From a virus (Duplodnaviria; Caudoviricetes), in IMG/VR virus record IMGVR_UViG_3300020360_000085, positions 160,001-224,000 of that record: a stretch of 64,000 nt of DNA. One strand, 5' to 3'. Below the pieces are notes generated by a model, which saw only the letters and a program-made list of their open reading frames with translations, was not told where the DNA came from and did not search any database. How positions within the stretch are numbered: position 1 is the stretch's first letter; the number at the start of each line of letters is the position of its first letter. Both the position numbers and the translations under genes were made by a program. This document shows positions 2,635 through 55,525 of this stretch, in pieces.

Positions 2635-4166
2635 GTAATTATGACCAGGCCGCAGATAAGGCCAAAAAACAGTTAGACAAAATAAGTCCAACTATGTGCT
2701 ATGCAAAATGGTCACAAGTTTCTATGCATTTACATAACGGCATGACTCATAGTTGTTATCATCCGCCTACACATAAAGTTGATTTAGAAGAATTAAAAGA
2801 AAATCCTACAGCACTTCATAATACAAAAGAGAAAAAAGAACAACGTAGACAAATGTTAGCAGGTGAAAGGCCAGAAGGGTGTAGTTACTGTTGGCGTATA
2901 GAAGATGTTGGTGGAAGAAGTGATCGTGTGTATCGTAGTGGCGAATATTGGGCTCAAAATGCTAGAGAAGAAATAGCAGAAGCAGGTGCAGATGGAAATA
3001 TAAATCCACGTTACGTTGAAGTAAACTTTAATCAAGCATGTAATTTAAAATGTAGTTATTGTAGTCCACATTTAAGTAACACTTGGGAGAAAGAAATAAA
3101 ACAATTTGGACCATACAATATAGTCCAAGGAGAACATAATAATTTAAATAGTTTAGGTAAAACTGGACTTATGCCATTAAAAATTTCACAAGCAGATAAT
3201 CCATATGTTACAGCCTTTTGGAAGTGGTGGCCTGATCTTTACAAAAATATAGAAGTTTTTCGTATGACAGGAGGAGAGCCACTAATGGATAGCAACACAT
3301 TTAAAGTATTAGACTATGTGTATAAAAATCCAAATGCCTGGCTTGAAATATCTGTTACATCAAACATGTGTCCACCTAAGCCAAAACTAATGGACATGTT
3401 TATAGAATCGCTACAAAGATTAGAAGAGATACAAATTTGGGAAGACCCAGAAAAGTTTAATCCAAACTCGGGGAACAACTGGTATGTAGCACCAGCATGT
3501 AAGAACTTTGCAACATTTGTATCATGTGATGGATATGGACCTCAAGCAGAGTATATGCGTAATGGTATGGACTTTAAAATGTTAGATAAAAATGTAAACA
3601 GAATCTTAGAGGATACAACTCATAGCACAATTACATTTATTAATACATTTAATGTACTAAGTTTAACAAGTTTGAAAGAATACTTACAATGGATTTTAGA
3701 ACTTAGAGATAGATATGCTAAGGATAGACAAGGAATAAAATATATTCCTATACCAGACAATGGCGGACATAAGCACCCAGATTATGAAGTAAGACCTAAA
3801 CAAAGAATATGGTTTGATATTCCATTGCTTAGAGCACCACTTTGGCAATGTATTCAAATAATGCCTGATTATTATCAGAGTTATTTGGAAGAAGCAATAG
3901 CATTTATGGAATTAAATAGAGCAGATGAAGTAAATATAGACTATAGAGGATTTAAAGATTTTGAAATAGATAAAGTAAGACGAAATTTAGAGTGGATGAA
4001 GGCCGGCTCTATTATGGATAAAGATGAATTACTTAAAGCAAGAGCAAATTTTTTTAAATTTTTTAGTCAGCATGATGAAAGAAGAAAAACAAACTTCTTA
4101 CAAGTTTTTCCAGAAATGGAAGATTGGTGGAATATTTGTAAAGAAGCAGAAGCATTAATAATATGA
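2631..4166 (+). CDS. radical SAM protein with N-terminal SPASM/twitch-like domain (#1)
   Basis: CNLKCSYC and MTGGEP; N-terminal C...SCYHPP...CSYCW. Confidence 0.9.
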   Translation: MSNYDQAADKAKKQLDKISPTMCYAKWSQVSMHLHNGMTHSCYHPPTHKVDLEELKENPTALHNTKEKKEQRRQMLAGERPEGCSYCWRIEDVGGRSDRVYRSGEYWAQNAREEIAEAGADGNINPRYVEVNFNQACNLKCSYCSPHLSNTWEKEIKQFGPYNIVQGEHNNLNSLGKTGLMPLKISQADNPYVTAFWKWWPDLYKNIEVFRMTGGEPLMDSNTFKVLDYVYKNPNAWLEISVTSNMCPPKPKLMDMFIESLQRLEEIQIWEDPEKFNPNSGNNWYVAPACKNFATFVSCDGYGPQAEYMRNGMDFKMLDKNVNRILEDTTHSTITFINTFNVLSLTSLKEYLQWILELRDRYAKDRQGIKYIPIPDNGGHKHPDYEVRPKQRIWFDIPLLRAPLWQCIQIMPDYYQSYLEEAIAFMELNRADEVNIDYRGFKDFEIDKVRRNLEWMKAGSIMDKDELLKARANFFKFFSQHDERRKTNFLQVFPEMEDWWNICKEAEALII

Positions 4167-26335: not shown

Positions 26336-26645
26336 GTTTACAAGTCCCCCTAAAAGTGAATCCAGGACAAGTGCAAGTGCCCTTTTCTGTATCTATATGA
26401 TAAATGTTTCCTTTAGAACCTGTAACCTGTATAATATGACTTTGTAATTCCTCAGGTCTCTCTCCAATTTTTTTAAACTTACGTCTTGATTTACTAAATT
26501 GTGTGCTAGGCACATTTAATACTTGTACTTCAGAATCTATGTTTGGTTGATATGCTATTAGTTTACCTGCAGAGTTTATATGGTAAATGCCATTGTTTAC
26601 TTTGTACTTACCCCAATCAGTAACTTCTTGTAATATCTCGATCAT
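26316..26645 (-). CDS. SWIM zinc-finger protein
   Basis: C-terminal CTCPGFTFRGTCKH (CxC...CxH). Confidence 0.8.
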   Translation of the reverse strand: MIEILQEVTDWGKYKVNNGIYHINSAGKLIAYQPNIDSEVQVLNVPSTQFSKSRRKFKKIGERPEELQSHIIQVTGSKGNIYHIDTEKGTCTCPGFTFRGTCKHVKEYC

Positions 26646-26703
26646 AATTTACTCCTTACCTTAAATTATTAGTATATTATAGCAAATTATATGTAAAAGT
26701 CAA
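26643..26703 (-). promoter_or_regulatory. sigma70-like promoter (TTGACT-N16-TATAAT, TGC extension) and RBS hairpin leader
   Basis: -35 at 26698-26703, -10 at 26676-26681; leader ATAATTTAAGGTAAGGAGTAAATTATG. Confidence 0.75.
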
Positions 26704-26796: not shown

Positions 26797-27384
26797 ATGT
26801 ATTATTCAGAATCAATGATTCAGATGGTCGAGGATTTACATGCTCAAGCATCTGCAATGGAGAAAGAAGTAAAGCATATGATGGAACTTGAAGGTCGTGC
26901 ATTAGGTATAGAATTAGACAAAAGAAAAAGTCCAAGAGATTTATACAACGAACTTATGGAACATCAAAATGCTAAGGCAGAAGAAGAAGCAATGACATGG
27001 GCATACGTTCCATGCCAAATGGCAGAAGAAGATCCTAATTGCTATCCAGCAGATAGTTTTGATCATTCTTATGATGACCATGCTGAAGTTCATGTTGAAG
27101 AGGAAGCCTGTGTGCATGTTGAAGAACATGTAATTGAAAGCGAAGCACCCGCAGATATGCCGGTAGAAGAACATGTAGAACCTGCACCAGCAGAAGAGCA
27201 TGTTGAGCCTGCACCTGTAGAGGAACATATGGAACCTGCTCCAGTAATGGAAGAGGCACCAATGGAAGAACATGTAGAACCTGCACCAGCAGAAGAGCAT
27301 GTTGAAGCACCAGCAGTTCAAGAACCAGGTTTTGACGCAAGTGCAGAAGCACCTGCAGAAGACCCTAATCAACCAGCAGGTTAA
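26797..27384 (+). CDS. acidic Glu/His/Pro-repeat protein (EEHVEPAP repeats)
   Basis: Strong RBS and downstream hairpin; N-terminal helical region, then about 110 aa with no Lys/Arg. Confidence 0.75.
   Translation: MYYSESMIQMVEDLHAQASAMEKEVKHMMELEGRALGIELDKRKSPRDLYNELMEHQNAKAEEEAMTWAYVPCQMAEEDPNCYPADSFDHSYDDHAEVHVEEEACVHVEEHVIESEAPADMPVEEHVEPAPAEEHVEPAPVEEHMEPAPVMEEAPMEEHVEPAPAEEHVEAPAVQEPGFDASAEAPAEDPNQPAG
27166..27305 (+). repeat. 41-bp exact direct repeat inside coding tandem repeats
   Basis: gaagaacatgtagaacctgcaccagcagaagagcatgttga at 27166-27206 and 27265-27305. Confidence 0.9.
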
Positions 27385-27390
27385 TTAGTC

Positions 27391-27418
27391 AAAAAAAAGG
27401 CCCCGTTGAGGGGCCTTC
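27391..27418 (-). terminator. rho-independent terminator between convergent genes
   Basis: AAGGCCCC/GGGGCCTT stem with a 5-nt loop; the A-tract on + gives a U-tract on -. Confidence 0.85.
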
Positions 27419-27420
27419 TA

Positions 27421-27471
27421 AAATCCGTGTGCCTTAGGTAGGGAGTAACATAGGTAGGCGCACAAGGATTT
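27421..27471. ncRNA. candidate structured RNA hairpin with an SD/anti-SD loop
   Basis: AAATCC-GTGTGCCT / AGGCGCAC-AA-GGATTT stem enclosing the 21-nt loop TAGGTAGGGAGTAACATAGGT. Confidence 0.45.
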
Positions 27472-27479
27472 TAAACCGT

Positions 27480-28592
27480 TTACACGATATATTTAATGTA
27501 TCTTTTACTGAAAGTCTCCCTTAACTCTTCAGTAAGATCAGTTCTTACATTAAACTTGATTTGATAGTCCTTCATAATTGTTCTAAATAAGAACACAACC
27601 ATTTCAGGTTCAAAGTTATCAAAACTAAACTTTACAATATTGTTAAGTCCTTTTTTCAACTCATCTGAGAAGACACCTTCATTTTTTTCGTATCTTTCAT
27701 TAAGTTCGTATGCAAGTCCTACTACTAGTGAGTATTTTGCACTGATTTCTGAACTAACTTTATTATCCAGTTTTTTAACTTTACCATCTAATACCTGATC
27801 AGGATTTGGCAAATGTTGTGCAACTTTTCTGTGCTCAACAAATTTAATTGCCATACCTTCTCCTATAGCACCTGCAATCTCGGCTTTTTGCTCGAAATTA
27901 CTAGCATTATCAAAACCATCTGCTCCTAGCATTTCACTAACAAAAGTCCAACTTCTTGGTGTAGCGAATGCTTGGGAACTAGATTTTGCATCAAAGTCAA
28001 ACAAGTCACCTTTACTGTAAGTTAAATAACCTACAACATCAGGGTGTACATTGTTATTAACCGCCCATTGTTGCCAATCATCAAAATTGACGTCCATGTT
28101 GATGTGACGGAATCTGTTTGCCAACGGTGCCGGCATACGGAAAGTTACACCTCTGTCTGTTTCACGGTTACCTGCCGCAACAATTCTTACATTATCAGGT
28201 AAAACATATTGTCCTACTTTTCTGTTAAGAACTAATTGGTAAGCCGCCGCCTGTACACTAGGAGGTGCTGAATTCAACTCATCTAGGAAAAGTACCACAG
28301 TATCAAATTCACTTGCGAATTCCATACTAGGTAGGTCACTTGGAGGGGACCATTCCATTAAGTTGCTTTCTGGATTTCTAAAAGGATATCCTCTTAGATC
28401 AGTTGGTTCAAGAAGTGCTAAACGCATATCTATCATAGTAGCATTACCTATTTCGCCACTATTAACAATTTGTTCAACAAGTTCTGATTTGCCTATTCCT
28501 GGTGCTCCCCAGATAAAAATAGGCCTGTTTACTTGAAGTGCCCTCTTAATGATAGGCTTTACTTCAGTTGCTCTAGTTTTTAAAGTTTCCAT
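27480..28592 (-). CDS. MoxR-like AAA+ ATPase
   Basis: Walker A GAPGIGKS, Walker B LFLDELN, AAGNRETD, PLANRF, ATPRSW. Confidence 0.9.
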   Translation of the reverse strand: METLKTRATEVKPIIKRALQVNRPIFIWGAPGIGKSELVEQIVNSGEIGNATMIDMRLALLEPTDLRGYPFRNPESNLMEWSPPSDLPSMEFASEFDTVVLFLDELNSAPPSVQAAAYQLVLNRKVGQYVLPDNVRIVAAGNRETDRGVTFRMPAPLANRFRHINMDVNFDDWQQWAVNNNVHPDVVGYLTYSKGDLFDFDAKSSSQAFATPRSWTFVSEMLGADGFDNASNFEQKAEIAGAIGEGMAIKFVEHRKVAQHLPNPDQVLDGKVKKLDNKVSSEISAKYSLVVGLAYELNERYEKNEGVFSDELKKGLNNIVKFSFDNFEPEMVVFLFRTIMKDYQIKFNVRTDLTEELRETFSKRYIKYIV

Positions 28593-28680
28593 AATTTACT
28601 CCTTACCTTAAATTATGTATATATAATAGCACAAAAATAGGTCTTGTCAACACTTTTTTTAACTTTTTTTTAACTTTTTT
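28590..28680 (-). promoter_or_regulatory. sigma70-like promoter (TTGACA-N16-TATTAT) with A-tract UP element and RBS hairpin leader
   Basis: -35 at 28645-28650, -10 at 28623-28628; three A-tracts at 28654-28680; 27-nt leader identical to 26643-26669. Confidence 0.75.
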
Positions 28681-50473: not shown

Positions 50474-51048
50474 TATTTGGCTTTAGATTTTTTAGGCTTT
50501 AAACTAGGATCTAGTTTATATGCTTCTGCTTTTTTACTCTCTGCGTCTTCCATTAGTTGTTTAGCATCTTGTTCAATCATTTCTGCTTGTACTAATAGTC
50601 CTTCTGCCGCACTGGCATCTCCTGTAACCTCTACTGGGTTTGGAGTTTGCAAAGTGTCAGGATCAACATCAACATTTAATGGTGGATTAGATCCTGTTTC
50701 TAATTTGTTAATTTCAGCATTAACTTCCTGTAATGATATTTTTTGGCTAGGTGTAGGAGTCAAAAATACCATATCAACTGGAACTTTAATTAACTTTTTA
50801 CTAAAATGTAAATCATTAAGTATATTAGTACCGTCACTAAACTGACGTCTTGATAAAACTTCAGATACATTATTAGATTCTTGTGCTTCTAAACTAGCAA
50901 CAATATTCATTAAATCGTCGTGTTTAGAATCTTCAAGTGATGCTGATTCAACAATTAAGCAGTTATCTGGTTCATTAGGAACTTCCCTGAATACAACTAC
51001 GCAAGGTTTTTCTCCATAAGAACCGACATGTTTCATTAATTCTGCCAT
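50473..51048 (-). CDS. hypothetical protein
   Basis: MAELMKHVG...VVFREVP; C-terminal coiled coil. Confidence 0.7.
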   Translation of the reverse strand: MAELMKHVGSYGEKPCVVVFREVPNEPDNCLIVESASLEDSKHDDLMNIVASLEAQESNNVSEVLSRRQFSDGTNILNDLHFSKKLIKVPVDMVFLTPTPSQKISLQEVNAEINKLETGSNPPLNVDVDPDTLQTPNPVEVTGDASAAEGLLVQAEMIEQDAKQLMEDAESKKAEAYKLDPSLKPKKSKAK

Positions 51049-51710: not shown

Positions 51711-52338
51711 ACAATCCCTCAGGTGGATAAGAAATATAATATATTTCTCTTTCTTCTTTTATTATGCCATATAACCAACTTTTGTCTTTAGTTACCTCTG
51801 TTATAAGTGTAGCAATATATCTAGGCCAGCCTACCACATCTTTAATATGTGCTGGACAAATACCATATGAATCGATACCATTTGCTCTTTGATTTTGTAT
51901 AATTTGGTAATCTACTGCTCGTTGCATTTTATATGTTAGTAAATTTTTAAATTCAGGATTTGTGTCTTTTGCAATTTGGCTAGTGATATGTGCTATTTCT
52001 CCTTTAAAATTATTTTCTATAAGCCAATCAAACACAAATACTTTAAAAAAATTAGTGTCTAAATTGTTTTGATACCATTCATTAAAAATTATTTTTTGCG
52101 TATCAACATTTTGATTATGTATAGGATGATTTAATTCGAAAGGTACACCAACATTAATATTAAACACAACATAGTCAGGAAAAGGTAAATTTTCTTTTGC
52201 TTGTTCTATAAATTCGGCAGGGTTTGTATAATTTACATTTTCCCTGCCTAATTGTGTTACTTTATGACCGTCCTCATGCCATTGGTCTACCATATGCTGA
52301 CTAAAGTCTGAACTTTTGCCAAATAACCAAATGTTCAT
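51685..52338 (-). CDS. degenerate SDR/Rossmann-like protein
   Basis: MNIWLFGKSSDFSQ...GHKVTQLGR, YVVFNIN, HITS, TYKMQR (YxxxK not intact). Confidence 0.45.
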   Translation of the reverse strand: MNIWLFGKSSDFSQHMVDQWHEDGHKVTQLGRENVNYTNPAEFIEQAKENLPFPDYVVFNINVGVPFELNHPIHNQNVDTQKIIFNEWYQNNLDTNFFKVFVFDWLIENNFKGEIAHITSQIAKDTNPEFKNLLTYKMQRAVDYQIIQNQRANGIDSYGICPAHIKDVVGWPRYIATLITEVTKDKSWLYGIIKEEREIYYISYPPEGLYDTSNDLP

Positions 52339-53675
52339 TCTTCGTCTTTTCTAGTATAAGGAATAGTTATTCCAAATGGTGCTTCAGGACTTCTGTCTCC
52401 ATAACCACCATGCACAATAAACAATGTATCACAGTAATGCTCATCTCCCCAACTTCCATAAGGATAGCCGTCAGTAAACATTACATGCTTCTTAGGAGTA
52501 ATACCGTTTTCTTTCATGTAATCAAATACACAATCAAAATCAGTACCGCCACCACCATGCAGTTCGTATTCCATAAACTCGCCCATGTTACCCTGATCAA
52601 ATACTTGAGGGTTGTAAACATCTGTATCAAAACAAACTAAATGTATTTTAAAGTCTGTGTATTGGTCCATAACACCTTTAACTTCTCCTAAAAAGTCTCT
52701 AGCCATATCGTCAAATATAGAACCTGACATATCCATGGATACAAAAATATCTATTGTTGTTTCCCTATCTAATCCAGGAAAGTAGTAACCTTCTTCTCTA
52801 CCTTTTCTGCTAGGAGTTTGCATAGTGTAATCACTTCTCATAACACTTTGTATTTGCATAGCAAGTAATTGTCTCCAATCAAGTTGTGGATTCAAAAACT
52901 TATCTAGCAATCTTTTTACTCCGCCTGGCAAGTTACCAGCACCTGCCGCCTTGGCGGCCTGCATAGTAGCATTCTGGAACTCTTGTTTTATTTGTTCTTT
53001 TTCTTCAGCAGTATATTGTGCAGGACCGTCTTTGCCTTCCTCGTCTCCATCTGAATTGCCTTTGTTTACAGAGTCAGGACTTGCATCGTCACCTTCCTCT
53101 CTATCTAAATGCACATCAAAAGTATCTTGATTTACTTCAATAATTTGTCCATTTTCCTGCATTTCGTCAAAAAGTTCATCGTAAATTTCTTCAGATATTT
53201 TACCTCTGTATTTCCAATCATGACATATTTGCACAATTTTTATTTCTTCGCCTACTCTAGCATCAATAAGATCAGCATTAATAACATAATCGTTTGCTAT
53301 GTTCCATAATACAGGATGTCTGTCTCCTCTCCTAGTAACATCCATATGATCATATACACAATGTAAAACTTCGTGACCCATAAGGAATACAGTTTCTTCA
53401 TCGCTTAAAGCACCTACAAAATGCTTGTTGTAATAAAAATATTTGCCGTCAGTTGCGGCTGTAGGACACCATTCTGTAGCATCTTTAAGGATTAGTCTAG
53501 TTGCTAAGTTGCCAAAGAAAGGTGCTGACATCAGCATTTCTATTCTGGCTTTAATAAGTTTATCTAGTATTTCCTCATCAGAAAGACTAGTTTCTGGTAT
53601 ATCTACTAATGTTTTACTAGATCTATCAGAAGCATTACCTTTTGCTTTTGGTGTTTTATCTAAAATATCTGTCAT
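52335..53675 (-). CDS. VWA-domain metallopeptidase-like protein (DUF2201-like)
   Basis: AATDG and HEVLH (HExxH); VWA MIDAS-like DMSGS, GGGTDF, FTDGY. Confidence 0.85.
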   Translation of the reverse strand: MTDILDKTPKAKGNASDRSSKTLVDIPETSLSDEEILDKLIKARIEMLMSAPFFGNLATRLILKDATEWCPTAATDGKYFYYNKHFVGALSDEETVFLMGHEVLHCVYDHMDVTRRGDRHPVLWNIANDYVINADLIDARVGEEIKIVQICHDWKYRGKISEEIYDELFDEMQENGQIIEVNQDTFDVHLDREEGDDASPDSVNKGNSDGDEEGKDGPAQYTAEEKEQIKQEFQNATMQAAKAAGAGNLPGGVKRLLDKFLNPQLDWRQLLAMQIQSVMRSDYTMQTPSRKGREEGYYFPGLDRETTIDIFVSMDMSGSIFDDMARDFLGEVKGVMDQYTDFKIHLVCFDTDVYNPQVFDQGNMGEFMEYELHGGGGTDFDCVFDYMKENGITPKKHVMFTDGYPYGSWGDEHYCDTLFIVHGGYGDRSPEAPFGITIPYTRKDEE

Positions 53676-53699
53676 AAGTTACTCCTAACTATGTATAAT

Positions 53700-53727
53700 A
53701 GTATAGCAAAATTCACAGATATGTCAA
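53700..53727 (-). promoter_or_regulatory. sigma70-like promoter TTGACA-N16-TATACT
   Basis: -35 at 53722-53727, -10 at 53700-53705, TGC extension. Confidence 0.75.
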
Positions 53728-54880: not shown

Positions 54881-55476
54881 TATGTCTCCTTATAGGTAAT
54901 TATGTCGTATATTTCTTTCCAATTTTTAATAACTGTAGCATCTCCAATGTAATCCATGTTATGTCCATGCTCTACTAATATGCCATTTAATCCTGCATCT
55001 ATACCCCAATTTACATTTTCAGGCTTGTCTTCTATCCAGTAATTACCAGGATAATTTTCTCCATACTCCTGTAAAATAGTATCTTTGTCTGCGCCTGTGT
55101 CTAAACATATTACATCTATAAATGCATCTCCAAATAGTTTTTTAAGATTTCTTTCTCTTAAATATTTTGCATATGGATCTAAACTTAAACTTGTAATAGC
55201 AATAAATTTATACTGATGTTGCTCATGTAATTTTTTAACAAAAAATTGTGCATCACGTAATGGAGGTAAAAACCCTATTGCGGCACTTTCATTAAATTGC
55301 TTAACTAATTTGTTGCCGGCTTCTGAGGACATGCCATATCGTTGACCAATATTATACAAATACTGATAACCTTCAACTTTTTCATGCCCATGATGTTCCA
55401 TCCAAACTGAGAAACCTTCTTCCCAATCTAGTATTACACCATCACAATCTGTAAGTATTATTTTATCTTTTTTCAT
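54880..55476 (-). CDS. HAD-family 5'(3')-deoxyribonucleotidase-like phosphatase
   Basis: ILTDCDGV (DxDG), AITS, WIEDKPEN. Confidence 0.8.
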   Translation of the reverse strand: MKKDKIILTDCDGVILDWEEGFSVWMEHHGHEKVEGYQYLYNIGQRYGMSSEAGNKLVKQFNESAAIGFLPPLRDAQFFVKKLHEQHQYKFIAITSLSLDPYAKYLRERNLKKLFGDAFIDVICLDTGADKDTILQEYGENYPGNYWIEDKPENVNWGIDAGLNGILVEHGHNMDYIGDATVIKNWKEIYDIITYKET

Positions 55477-55497
55477 AAATTTTTACTCCCATAACTT

Positions 55498-55525
55498 ATT
55501 ATACTAGAAAACAAGTATTTGTCAA
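55498..55525 (-). promoter_or_regulatory. sigma70-like promoter TTGACA-N16-TATAAT
   Basis: -35 at 55520-55525, -10 at 55498-55503; back-to-back with TAAATA at 55537-55542 on +. Confidence 0.75.

Follow-up and report, generated by a model that had tools for sequence, protein, structure and literature searches.

The icaR mRNA of Staphylococcus aureus carries a C-rich anti-Shine-Dalgarno (anti-SD) motif in its 3'-tail that pairs with its own Shine-Dalgarno (SD) region (Ruiz de los Mozos et al. 2013, PMC3868564). The motif is the 7-nt UCCCCUG in the long 3'-tail of a bacterial gene; the pairing blocks the initiation complex, cleavage of the duplex by RNase III was demonstrated experimentally, and action in cis or in trans was proposed by the authors (PMC3868564). 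An anti-SD-like sequence is also found in the cuckoo or CcsR (alpha-r14) sRNAs of the alphaproteobacteria, stand-alone sRNA genes with 2-4 hairpins in which highly variable stems present a conserved C/U-rich loop motif, CCUCCUCCC (PMC4615179).

Post-transcriptional control by phage-encoded RNA is poorly charted. In the retroregulation of int by lambda sib, a phage site downstream of the gene lowers its expression through RNA structure; the RNase III hairpin involved is formed only upon read-through of the terminator and acts via 3' decay. The 3'-UTR-derived sRNAs of Gammaproteobacteria, such as CpxQ, DapZ and SdhX, share the terminator of the parent mRNA and pair with translation-initiation regions by means of a conserved seed. 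As a rule, these seeds are single-stranded 5' segments released by RNase E, and the usual targets are other genes, not the leader of the parent. No described phage 3'-tail that pairs with its own ribosome site was found in our literature search, and a transcriptome survey of Pseudomonas phages reported candidate UTR-derived phage non-coding RNAs, mostly without targets (PMC10914365).

Here we describe a hairpin that probably constitutes a cis-encoded regulatory RNA: it would form part of the 3' untranslated tail of the mRNA of an early MoxR-like ATPase in a phage and, judging from its sequence and that of its relatives, would act as an anti-SD element in the manner of icaR.

Results

The genome, an IMG/VR virus record of 250.5 kb with 33.5% G+C, is that of an uncultured ocean jumbo phage. 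The stretch analyzed, referred to as the window, comprises its bases 160001-224000 (64,000 nt), and positions are given in the numbering of the window unless stated otherwise. An ORF at 27480-28592 (-) with a TAA stop encodes a MoxR-like AAA+ ATPase of 370 aa (hereafter AAA), for which Pfam matches to AAA_5, Sigma54_activat and AAA_3 were obtained; its mRNA would be the parent of the hairpin. The closest cultured phages are those of the Pseudomonas PA5oct group, and the AAA protein is 47% identical to the PA5oct ATPase. Promoter, leader and ATG of the AAA gene are located at 28590-28650 (-), with TTGACA, a spacer of 16 nt and TG-n-TATTAT, and with a 13-mer containing the SD at 28596-28608; the predicted 5' leader is short, ~24 nt. 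The promoter and leader of a SWIM-domain gene (SWIM), the second predicted target, lie at 26643-26703 (-), where a 25-nt leader is the same as the AAA leader. Both promoters are near-consensus sigma-70 promoters with an extended -10.

The only plus-strand gene in this region (26797-27384 (+)) encodes a protein of 195 aa whose repeat tail is acidic and rich in Pro, Ala, Glu and His. It is convergent on the AAA terminator, its end being 6 nt away, and any read-through from it would be antisense to the hairpin. Of the relatives, the two closest alone have this gene, and it therefore looks like a recent insertion between the AAA and SWIM genes. Furthermore, the DUF2201 metallopeptidase/VWA gene (52335-53675 (-), compared with L072:3760-5097 in a relative) has moved 25 kb from the AAA gene in this genome, and its usual place is occupied by the SWIM gene and an FG-GAP gene with a copied AAA leader.

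Starting six bases past the TAA stop of the AAA gene, RNAfold predicted a hairpin at 27419-27473 (-) with an interrupted stem of ~15 bp and a large open loop, at -32.3 kcal/mol (z = -3.4 relative to shuffles). The open, C/U-rich loop measures 21-26 nt, 21 nt being unpaired in both the minimum-energy and the centroid fold. Its conserved core of 26 nt, CCUACCUAUGUUACUCCCUACCUAAG (27433-27458 (-)), corresponds to the anti-leader or anti-SD sequence and contains the 8-mer CCUACCUA twice. An intrinsic terminator at 27391-27419 (-), composed of a 10-bp GC-rich stem, a 5-nt loop and 8 T, would end the AAA transcript; the terminator scan located it at 27419-27395 plus the T-run, which is on the minus strand. 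RNAfold and the terminator scan thus bore out the hairpin, the 21-nt loop and the terminator at the positions that a first-pass annotation of this DNA had given them. No promoter-like site was found in the last 200 nt of the AAA gene and the hairpin is therefore read as part of the 3'-tail of the AAA mRNA. Its location, past the AAA stop (27480) and ahead of the terminator, corresponds to that of a 3'-tail element of the icaR type and suggests that gene and hairpin share one transcript.

At gathering threshold, none of the families of Rfam release 15 was detected in the window, and the only match in six related loci was a tRNA elsewhere. No further copies of the loop within two mismatches and no other large-loop, C/U-rich hairpin ahead of a terminator were found in the genome; a look-alike hairpin at 50723-50762 was rejected as it lies inside an ORF.

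The 13-mer AGGTAAGGAGTAA is present as an exact copy at 26649-26661 (-) and at 28596-28608 (-), 3 nt ahead of the SWIM and AAA start codons, respectively. The loop is the reverse complement of this 13-mer save for one A-C mismatch, and the 12/13 pairing with the ribosome site of the two leaders that the first-pass annotation had proposed is borne out by sequence matching. Only three sites in the whole 250.5 kb genome are within one mismatch of the 13-mer, namely the loop, the AAA leader and the SWIM leader; a common origin of the loop and both leaders, by way of an inverted copy, is conceivable. The predicted pairing with the AAA leader extends from -17 to +4 relative to the A of the ATG, with a duplex energy of -19.2 kcal/mol and a net energy of -13.4 kcal/mol after opening costs. 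The leader site had also been described as the loop of a small hairpin, which would allow a true loop-loop kiss. This leader hairpin is a weak, all-A/U stem of 8 bp (-1.4 to -2.6 kcal/mol), marginal in this genome and not kept as such in relatives, and a true loop-loop kiss is not supported.

Judged in this genome alone, the 12/13 match is unexceptional by unconstrained duplex energy. The corresponding scan of the genome returned >40 better sites, mostly in G-rich coding sequence, and AAA and SWIM ranked ~18th of 638 candidate starts. There was no genome-wide excess of complementary 7-mers or 8-mers, the counts being equal to those of shuffled loops. Two further 8-nt matches had been pointed out, to a VWA and to a "HAD" gene. 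Both are present, as GGAGTAAC and GGGAGTAA before the 446-aa DUF2201/VWA gene and a 198-aa ORF, but as 8-mers they are not above chance (23 sites near start codons vs 15±7 for shuffled loops), and the 198-aa ORF matched neither HAD nor any other Pfam family.

About 5 of the 16 promoter-proximal start regions match the loop well: those of a 177-aa gene 100 kb away, AAA, SWIM, the DUF2201 metallopeptidase/VWA gene and the 198-aa ORF. The promoter and leader of the VWA gene (53673-53727 (-)), with GGAGTAAC and -13.6 kcal/mol, represent the third predicted target; those of the 198-aa ORF (55474-55525 (-)), with GGGAGTAA and -12.9 kcal/mol, a weaker one. Since only ~5/16 leaders stand out and the k-mer counts equal those of shuffles, the broader proposal that the element shuts off early genes in general is not supported. 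Outside the window, the leader of the 177-aa early gene, AAGGTAGGAGTTATATG (G000:C1 ~86070-86107 (-)), gave the best predicted match to the loop among the promoter-proximal starts of the genome, with -16.9 kcal/mol.

Relatives were collected by two IMG/VR searches. One, with a single AAA protein, yielded 21 loci, which were chosen regardless of the loop; the other, with an alignment of 14 AAA proteins, yielded 80 loci. The order of a large-loop hairpin followed by a terminator was kept in all 43 distinct loci with an AAA identity of at least 63%. Loci at 43-50% AAA identity, including PA5oct, had no hairpin, the AAA gene being followed by a terminator only, as in PA5oct, or by the next gene. 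Among the 21 protein-found loci, the 26-nt loop was identical in 20 and the remaining one showed a single substitution, whereas stem arms, post-stop spacer and terminator all varied. The exact 24-nt loop core was found in 32 IMG/VR contigs, right after the AAA stop wherever upstream DNA was present. With 24-26 nt of the window-type loop invariant down to 68% AAA protein identity, while stems, spacers and terminators change, the comparison indicates that the loop is under strong selection.

The stem itself covaries. Compensatory double changes were observed in 10 of 11 pairs across 26 hairpins, and 87.9% of the cells were paired as compared to 68% with the 3' letters shuffled and 31-47% with the partners slid, in an alignment made with a covariance model built from five of these hairpins, which leans towards the structure of the model. 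The compensatory stem arms are plain in the raw sequences, too, and covariance model R1 matched the window at 27422-27470. MAFFT followed by RNAalifold on the raw hairpins misaligned the 3' arm and only the terminator was called. The terminator is present in all relatives with varied stems, and 7 of its 8 predicted pairs showed double changes. Loop conservation and covariation in relatives, which had been named as checks at the outset, thus both came out positive, the covariation for the stem as well as for the terminator.

These data also bear on the strand. The first-pass annotation had suggested that the plus-strand version of the loop would be an SD decoy. A function of the plus strand in the form of a decoy RNA that resembles an SD, or of the DNA as repeats or a recombination site, would find some basis in two UAGGUAGG copies plus GGGAG and in the convergent plus-strand gene that ends 6 nt from the terminator in this genome. 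However, the T-run is on the minus strand, and the convergent gene is confined to the two closest relatives; elsewhere an AAA-strand promoter and gene come next, and plus-strand transcription is therefore not expected in most relatives. For a DNA site, the compensatory stem changes argue instead for a folded single strand, and, with respect to an attachment core or a host copy, the 24-mer had 0 matches in 185,579 bacterial and archaeal genomes. Contradicted by terminator orientation, stem covariation and gene order of the relatives, a plus-strand or DNA function is very improbable.

Several additional features were seen around the hairpin in relatives. A conserved ~60-nt block, GAACCGTGTAGTAGAGTGCC...GTTACTACAATATGGC, lies just past the AAA terminator in eight of them (L061, where it spans 3694-3760, L062, L067, L068, L071, L073, L098 and L106); in L061 a tRNA gene (3814-3887) is situated ~120 nt beyond it. 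The block is missing from this genome, and its fold is no better than that of shuffles (z = -1.15). Many relatives (L066-L068, L071, L075, L076, L082, L084, L098 and L106) have an SD-like AAGGGAG at or just past the AAA stop (first 10-15 nt), often in a small hairpin. This sequence, absent from the window, is complementary to the CUCCCU of the loop, which follows 30 nt downstream, and a local pseudoknot might arise from their pairing. L100-L107, the most distant of the clades that have the hairpin, show an additional small hairpin within the large loop, on the 5' side of the anti-SD segment, and the anti-SD part is still single-stranded.

The loops fall into nine types, of which the window represents T1; the eight others occur in more distant clades, where the loop differs and the AAA leader differs in a matching way. 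For L087, the loop UACAUCACUCC faces the AAA leader GGAGUGAUGUA with a match of 11 nt, and for L080 ACCUACCUU faces AAGGUAGGU with 9 nt. The match is divided into two blocks in L088, where UACUACUCCU pairs with AGGAGUAGUA over 10 nt plus 7 nt at the 5' end of the leader, and in L097, where UUACUCCUAC pairs with GUAGGAGUAA over 10 nt plus UAGGUUG with CAACCUA. Averaged by loop type, the duplex energy was -17.97 kcal/mol for a loop with its own leader vs -13.82 kcal/mol for non-cognate pairs, and 0 of 20000 permutations were as good (P<5e-5), the leaders of related phages being non-independent samples. The longest Watson-Crick run, averaged in the same way, was 8.98 for cognate and 7.18 for non-cognate pairs (P = 2e-4). 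Composition-preserving shuffles of the loops gave -8.35±0.59 kcal/mol (best -10.81) and a run of 4.91, with 0/300 reaching the observed values; the cognate advantage of 4.15 kcal/mol compares to 0.18±0.47 for the shuffled loops. When the CUCC core was kept during shuffling, the AAA leaders gave -17.3 vs -9.4±0.7 kcal/mol. The complementarity of the 3'-tail to its own SD region, as in icaR, is beyond chance.

Within their loci (7-16 start regions per 6 kb), the AAA start region was the best match of the loop in 36 of 43 cases and the second best in the other 7. After opening of both partners, predicted net energies ranged from -5 to -20 kcal/mol in 11 relatives, 10 of them at -9 or better; opening of the loop is predicted to cost ~0-2 kcal/mol in most of the 11, and in every one of them the SD falls within the predicted duplex, which in most extends as far as the AUG. 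The conserved loop and its co-variation with the own leader across the nine types support what had been put forward, namely an anti-SD loop on the 3' side of the gene that would pair with the leader of this gene, be it as a 5'-3' interaction or as a 3'-derived sRNA.

A pyrimidine-rich hairpin next to a terminator may be complementary to purine-rich ribosome sites by chance, and this could account for the ordinary outcome of the k-mer and duplex scans of this genome alone. Across the relatives, however, CUCC-core-kept shuffles never reached the observed values, cognate pairs exceeded non-cognate ones and the AAA start region ranked first in 36/43 loci; given these shuffle controls, we regard chance as exceedingly improbable.

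The types T4 to T9 are informative with respect to another possibility, namely that the loop is a binding site for a phage or host protein, or a structural 3' stabilizer, with the leader likeness being secondary. All 24-26 loop positions are invariant in the clade of the window, and the two CCUACCUA repeats would suit a dimer. Both repeat and sequence are lost in T4 to T9, but the complementarity to the own leader is kept, and such tracking of the leader is not expected of a protein site, which makes this explanation improbable. The version in which the loop acts as a CsrA-type sponge was rejected, as no GGA motif is present in the loop. Two other candidate functions were dismissed. A mini-ORF in the loop (AUG UUA CUC CCU ACC UAA) has no SD, and its AUG is missing from types T4 to T9. 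Pairing with 16S rRNA near position 1492, through CUACCUUGUUAC in L078-L081, fails because the window type has an extra A and T4 to T9 have no match; we take CUACCUUGUUAC to be the complement of the universal 1492R primer site.

Most relatives have a 430-445-aa DUF2201 metallopeptidase/VWA gene with its own promoter directly after the AAA terminator, and its protein is the usual partner of MoxR. Promoter-proximal leaders other than that of AAA (VWA, SWIM and small ORFs) gave -13.6 kcal/mol vs -9.2±0.6 for core-kept shuffles, whereas internal SD-bearing sites showed no excess (-8.7 vs -8.8±0.4 kcal/mol). The VWA leader co-varied with the loop more weakly than the AAA leader (P ~0.01 by energy and 0.05 by run length). 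Leaders differ in which part of the loop they match: in L059, the predicted pairing of the AAA leader involves the 3' half of the loop, and the SWIM leader offers GGAGTAACATA, an 11-nt match to another part (UAUGUUACUCC). The whole 24-26 nt loop is frozen in the clade of the window although the AAA leaders of the clade vary. A single target does not account for this degree of constraint, which suggests either a protein partner or more than one target; several partners would explain the frozen loop.

The element may chiefly be a trans-acting sRNA, a 3' fragment of hairpin plus terminator, cut from the AAA mRNA, that represses private early leaders and perhaps host mRNAs, the pairing with the AAA leader being one of several. 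This would be in line with a fully invariant loop of which each leader uses only a part, in differing registers (L059, for example), and with the leaders on separate transcripts (VWA, SWIM and a 60-aa ORF), which match better than core-kept shuffles (-13.6 vs -9.2 kcal/mol). Five early leaders match in this genome, one of them 100 kb away, and a terminator with 8 U is the usual 3' end of an sRNA. On the other hand, co-variation is far stronger with the own leader than with the VWA leader (P<5e-5 vs about 0.01-0.05), complementary sites are without genome-wide excess and only ~5/16 promoter-proximal leaders match. We consider a mainly trans-acting sRNA rather unlikely; it overlaps with the reading that we favor, an anti-SD element directed at its own mRNA.

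Discussion

For the anti-SD element in the AAA mRNA, the open C/U-rich loop would base-pair with the short, unstructured 5' leader of its own mRNA, from near the 5' end over the SD sequence to the start codon. The duplex would compete with the 30S subunit and, as soon as the transcript is complete, would thereby restrict its translation, acting in cis or from one molecule on another. Hairpin and terminator together would make a stable 3' end, and a 3' fragment could persist and act in trans on a few similar early leaders, such as those of SWIM and the VWA partner and perhaps one or two others. What the sequences show is a conserved structure, its complementarity to the leader and the co-variation of loop and leader. 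From these we infer that pairing takes place in the cell, that it represses rather than stabilizes, and that it operates in a cis or trans mode.

By analogy, icaR is the closest mechanism, as in both cases an anti-SD motif in the 3'-tail faces the ribosome site of the same mRNA. Unlike in icaR, the phage motif occupies the open loop of a hairpin of its own, which lies 1-2 nt ahead of the terminator; the complementarity comprises 8-13 nt or two blocks, the gene is a phage early gene, and the element is predicted from sequence. The closest architecture is that of the cuckoo/CcsR sRNAs, with which the phage element has variable stems and a conserved anti-SD loop in common. It is not a member of this family, however, as it consists of one hairpin in an mRNA tail and its loop sequence is different. 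Its hairpin and 8-U terminator would be compatible with the architecture of the 3'-UTR-derived sRNAs, and pairing with initiation regions is predicted here as well. As in lambda sib, an RNA structure of a phage is located downstream of a gene, the expression of which it is here proposed to lower; unlike in sib, the loop is conserved, the hairpin precedes the terminator and there is a match to the ribosome site.

The hairpin might further belong to an as yet undescribed but widespread class of "anti-leader" RNAs that accompany the early MoxR-type ATPase genes of jumbo phages, a generalization that we offer as a tentative possibility. Each lineage would have a private leader tag on a few early genes and a matching loop behind the ATPase gene, and the 3' fragment would serve in trans as a timer closing the early module.

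In the present case, comparative sequence alone led to a specific RNA-RNA pair with natural compensatory variants, and the nine natural loop-leader pairs would represent ready-made orthogonal translational brakes. If confirmed, the element would represent a 5'-3' UTR circuit of the bacterial type that is encoded by a virus, and would reveal how the output of an early MoxR-VWA module with very strong host-type promoters is dosed by jumbo phages.
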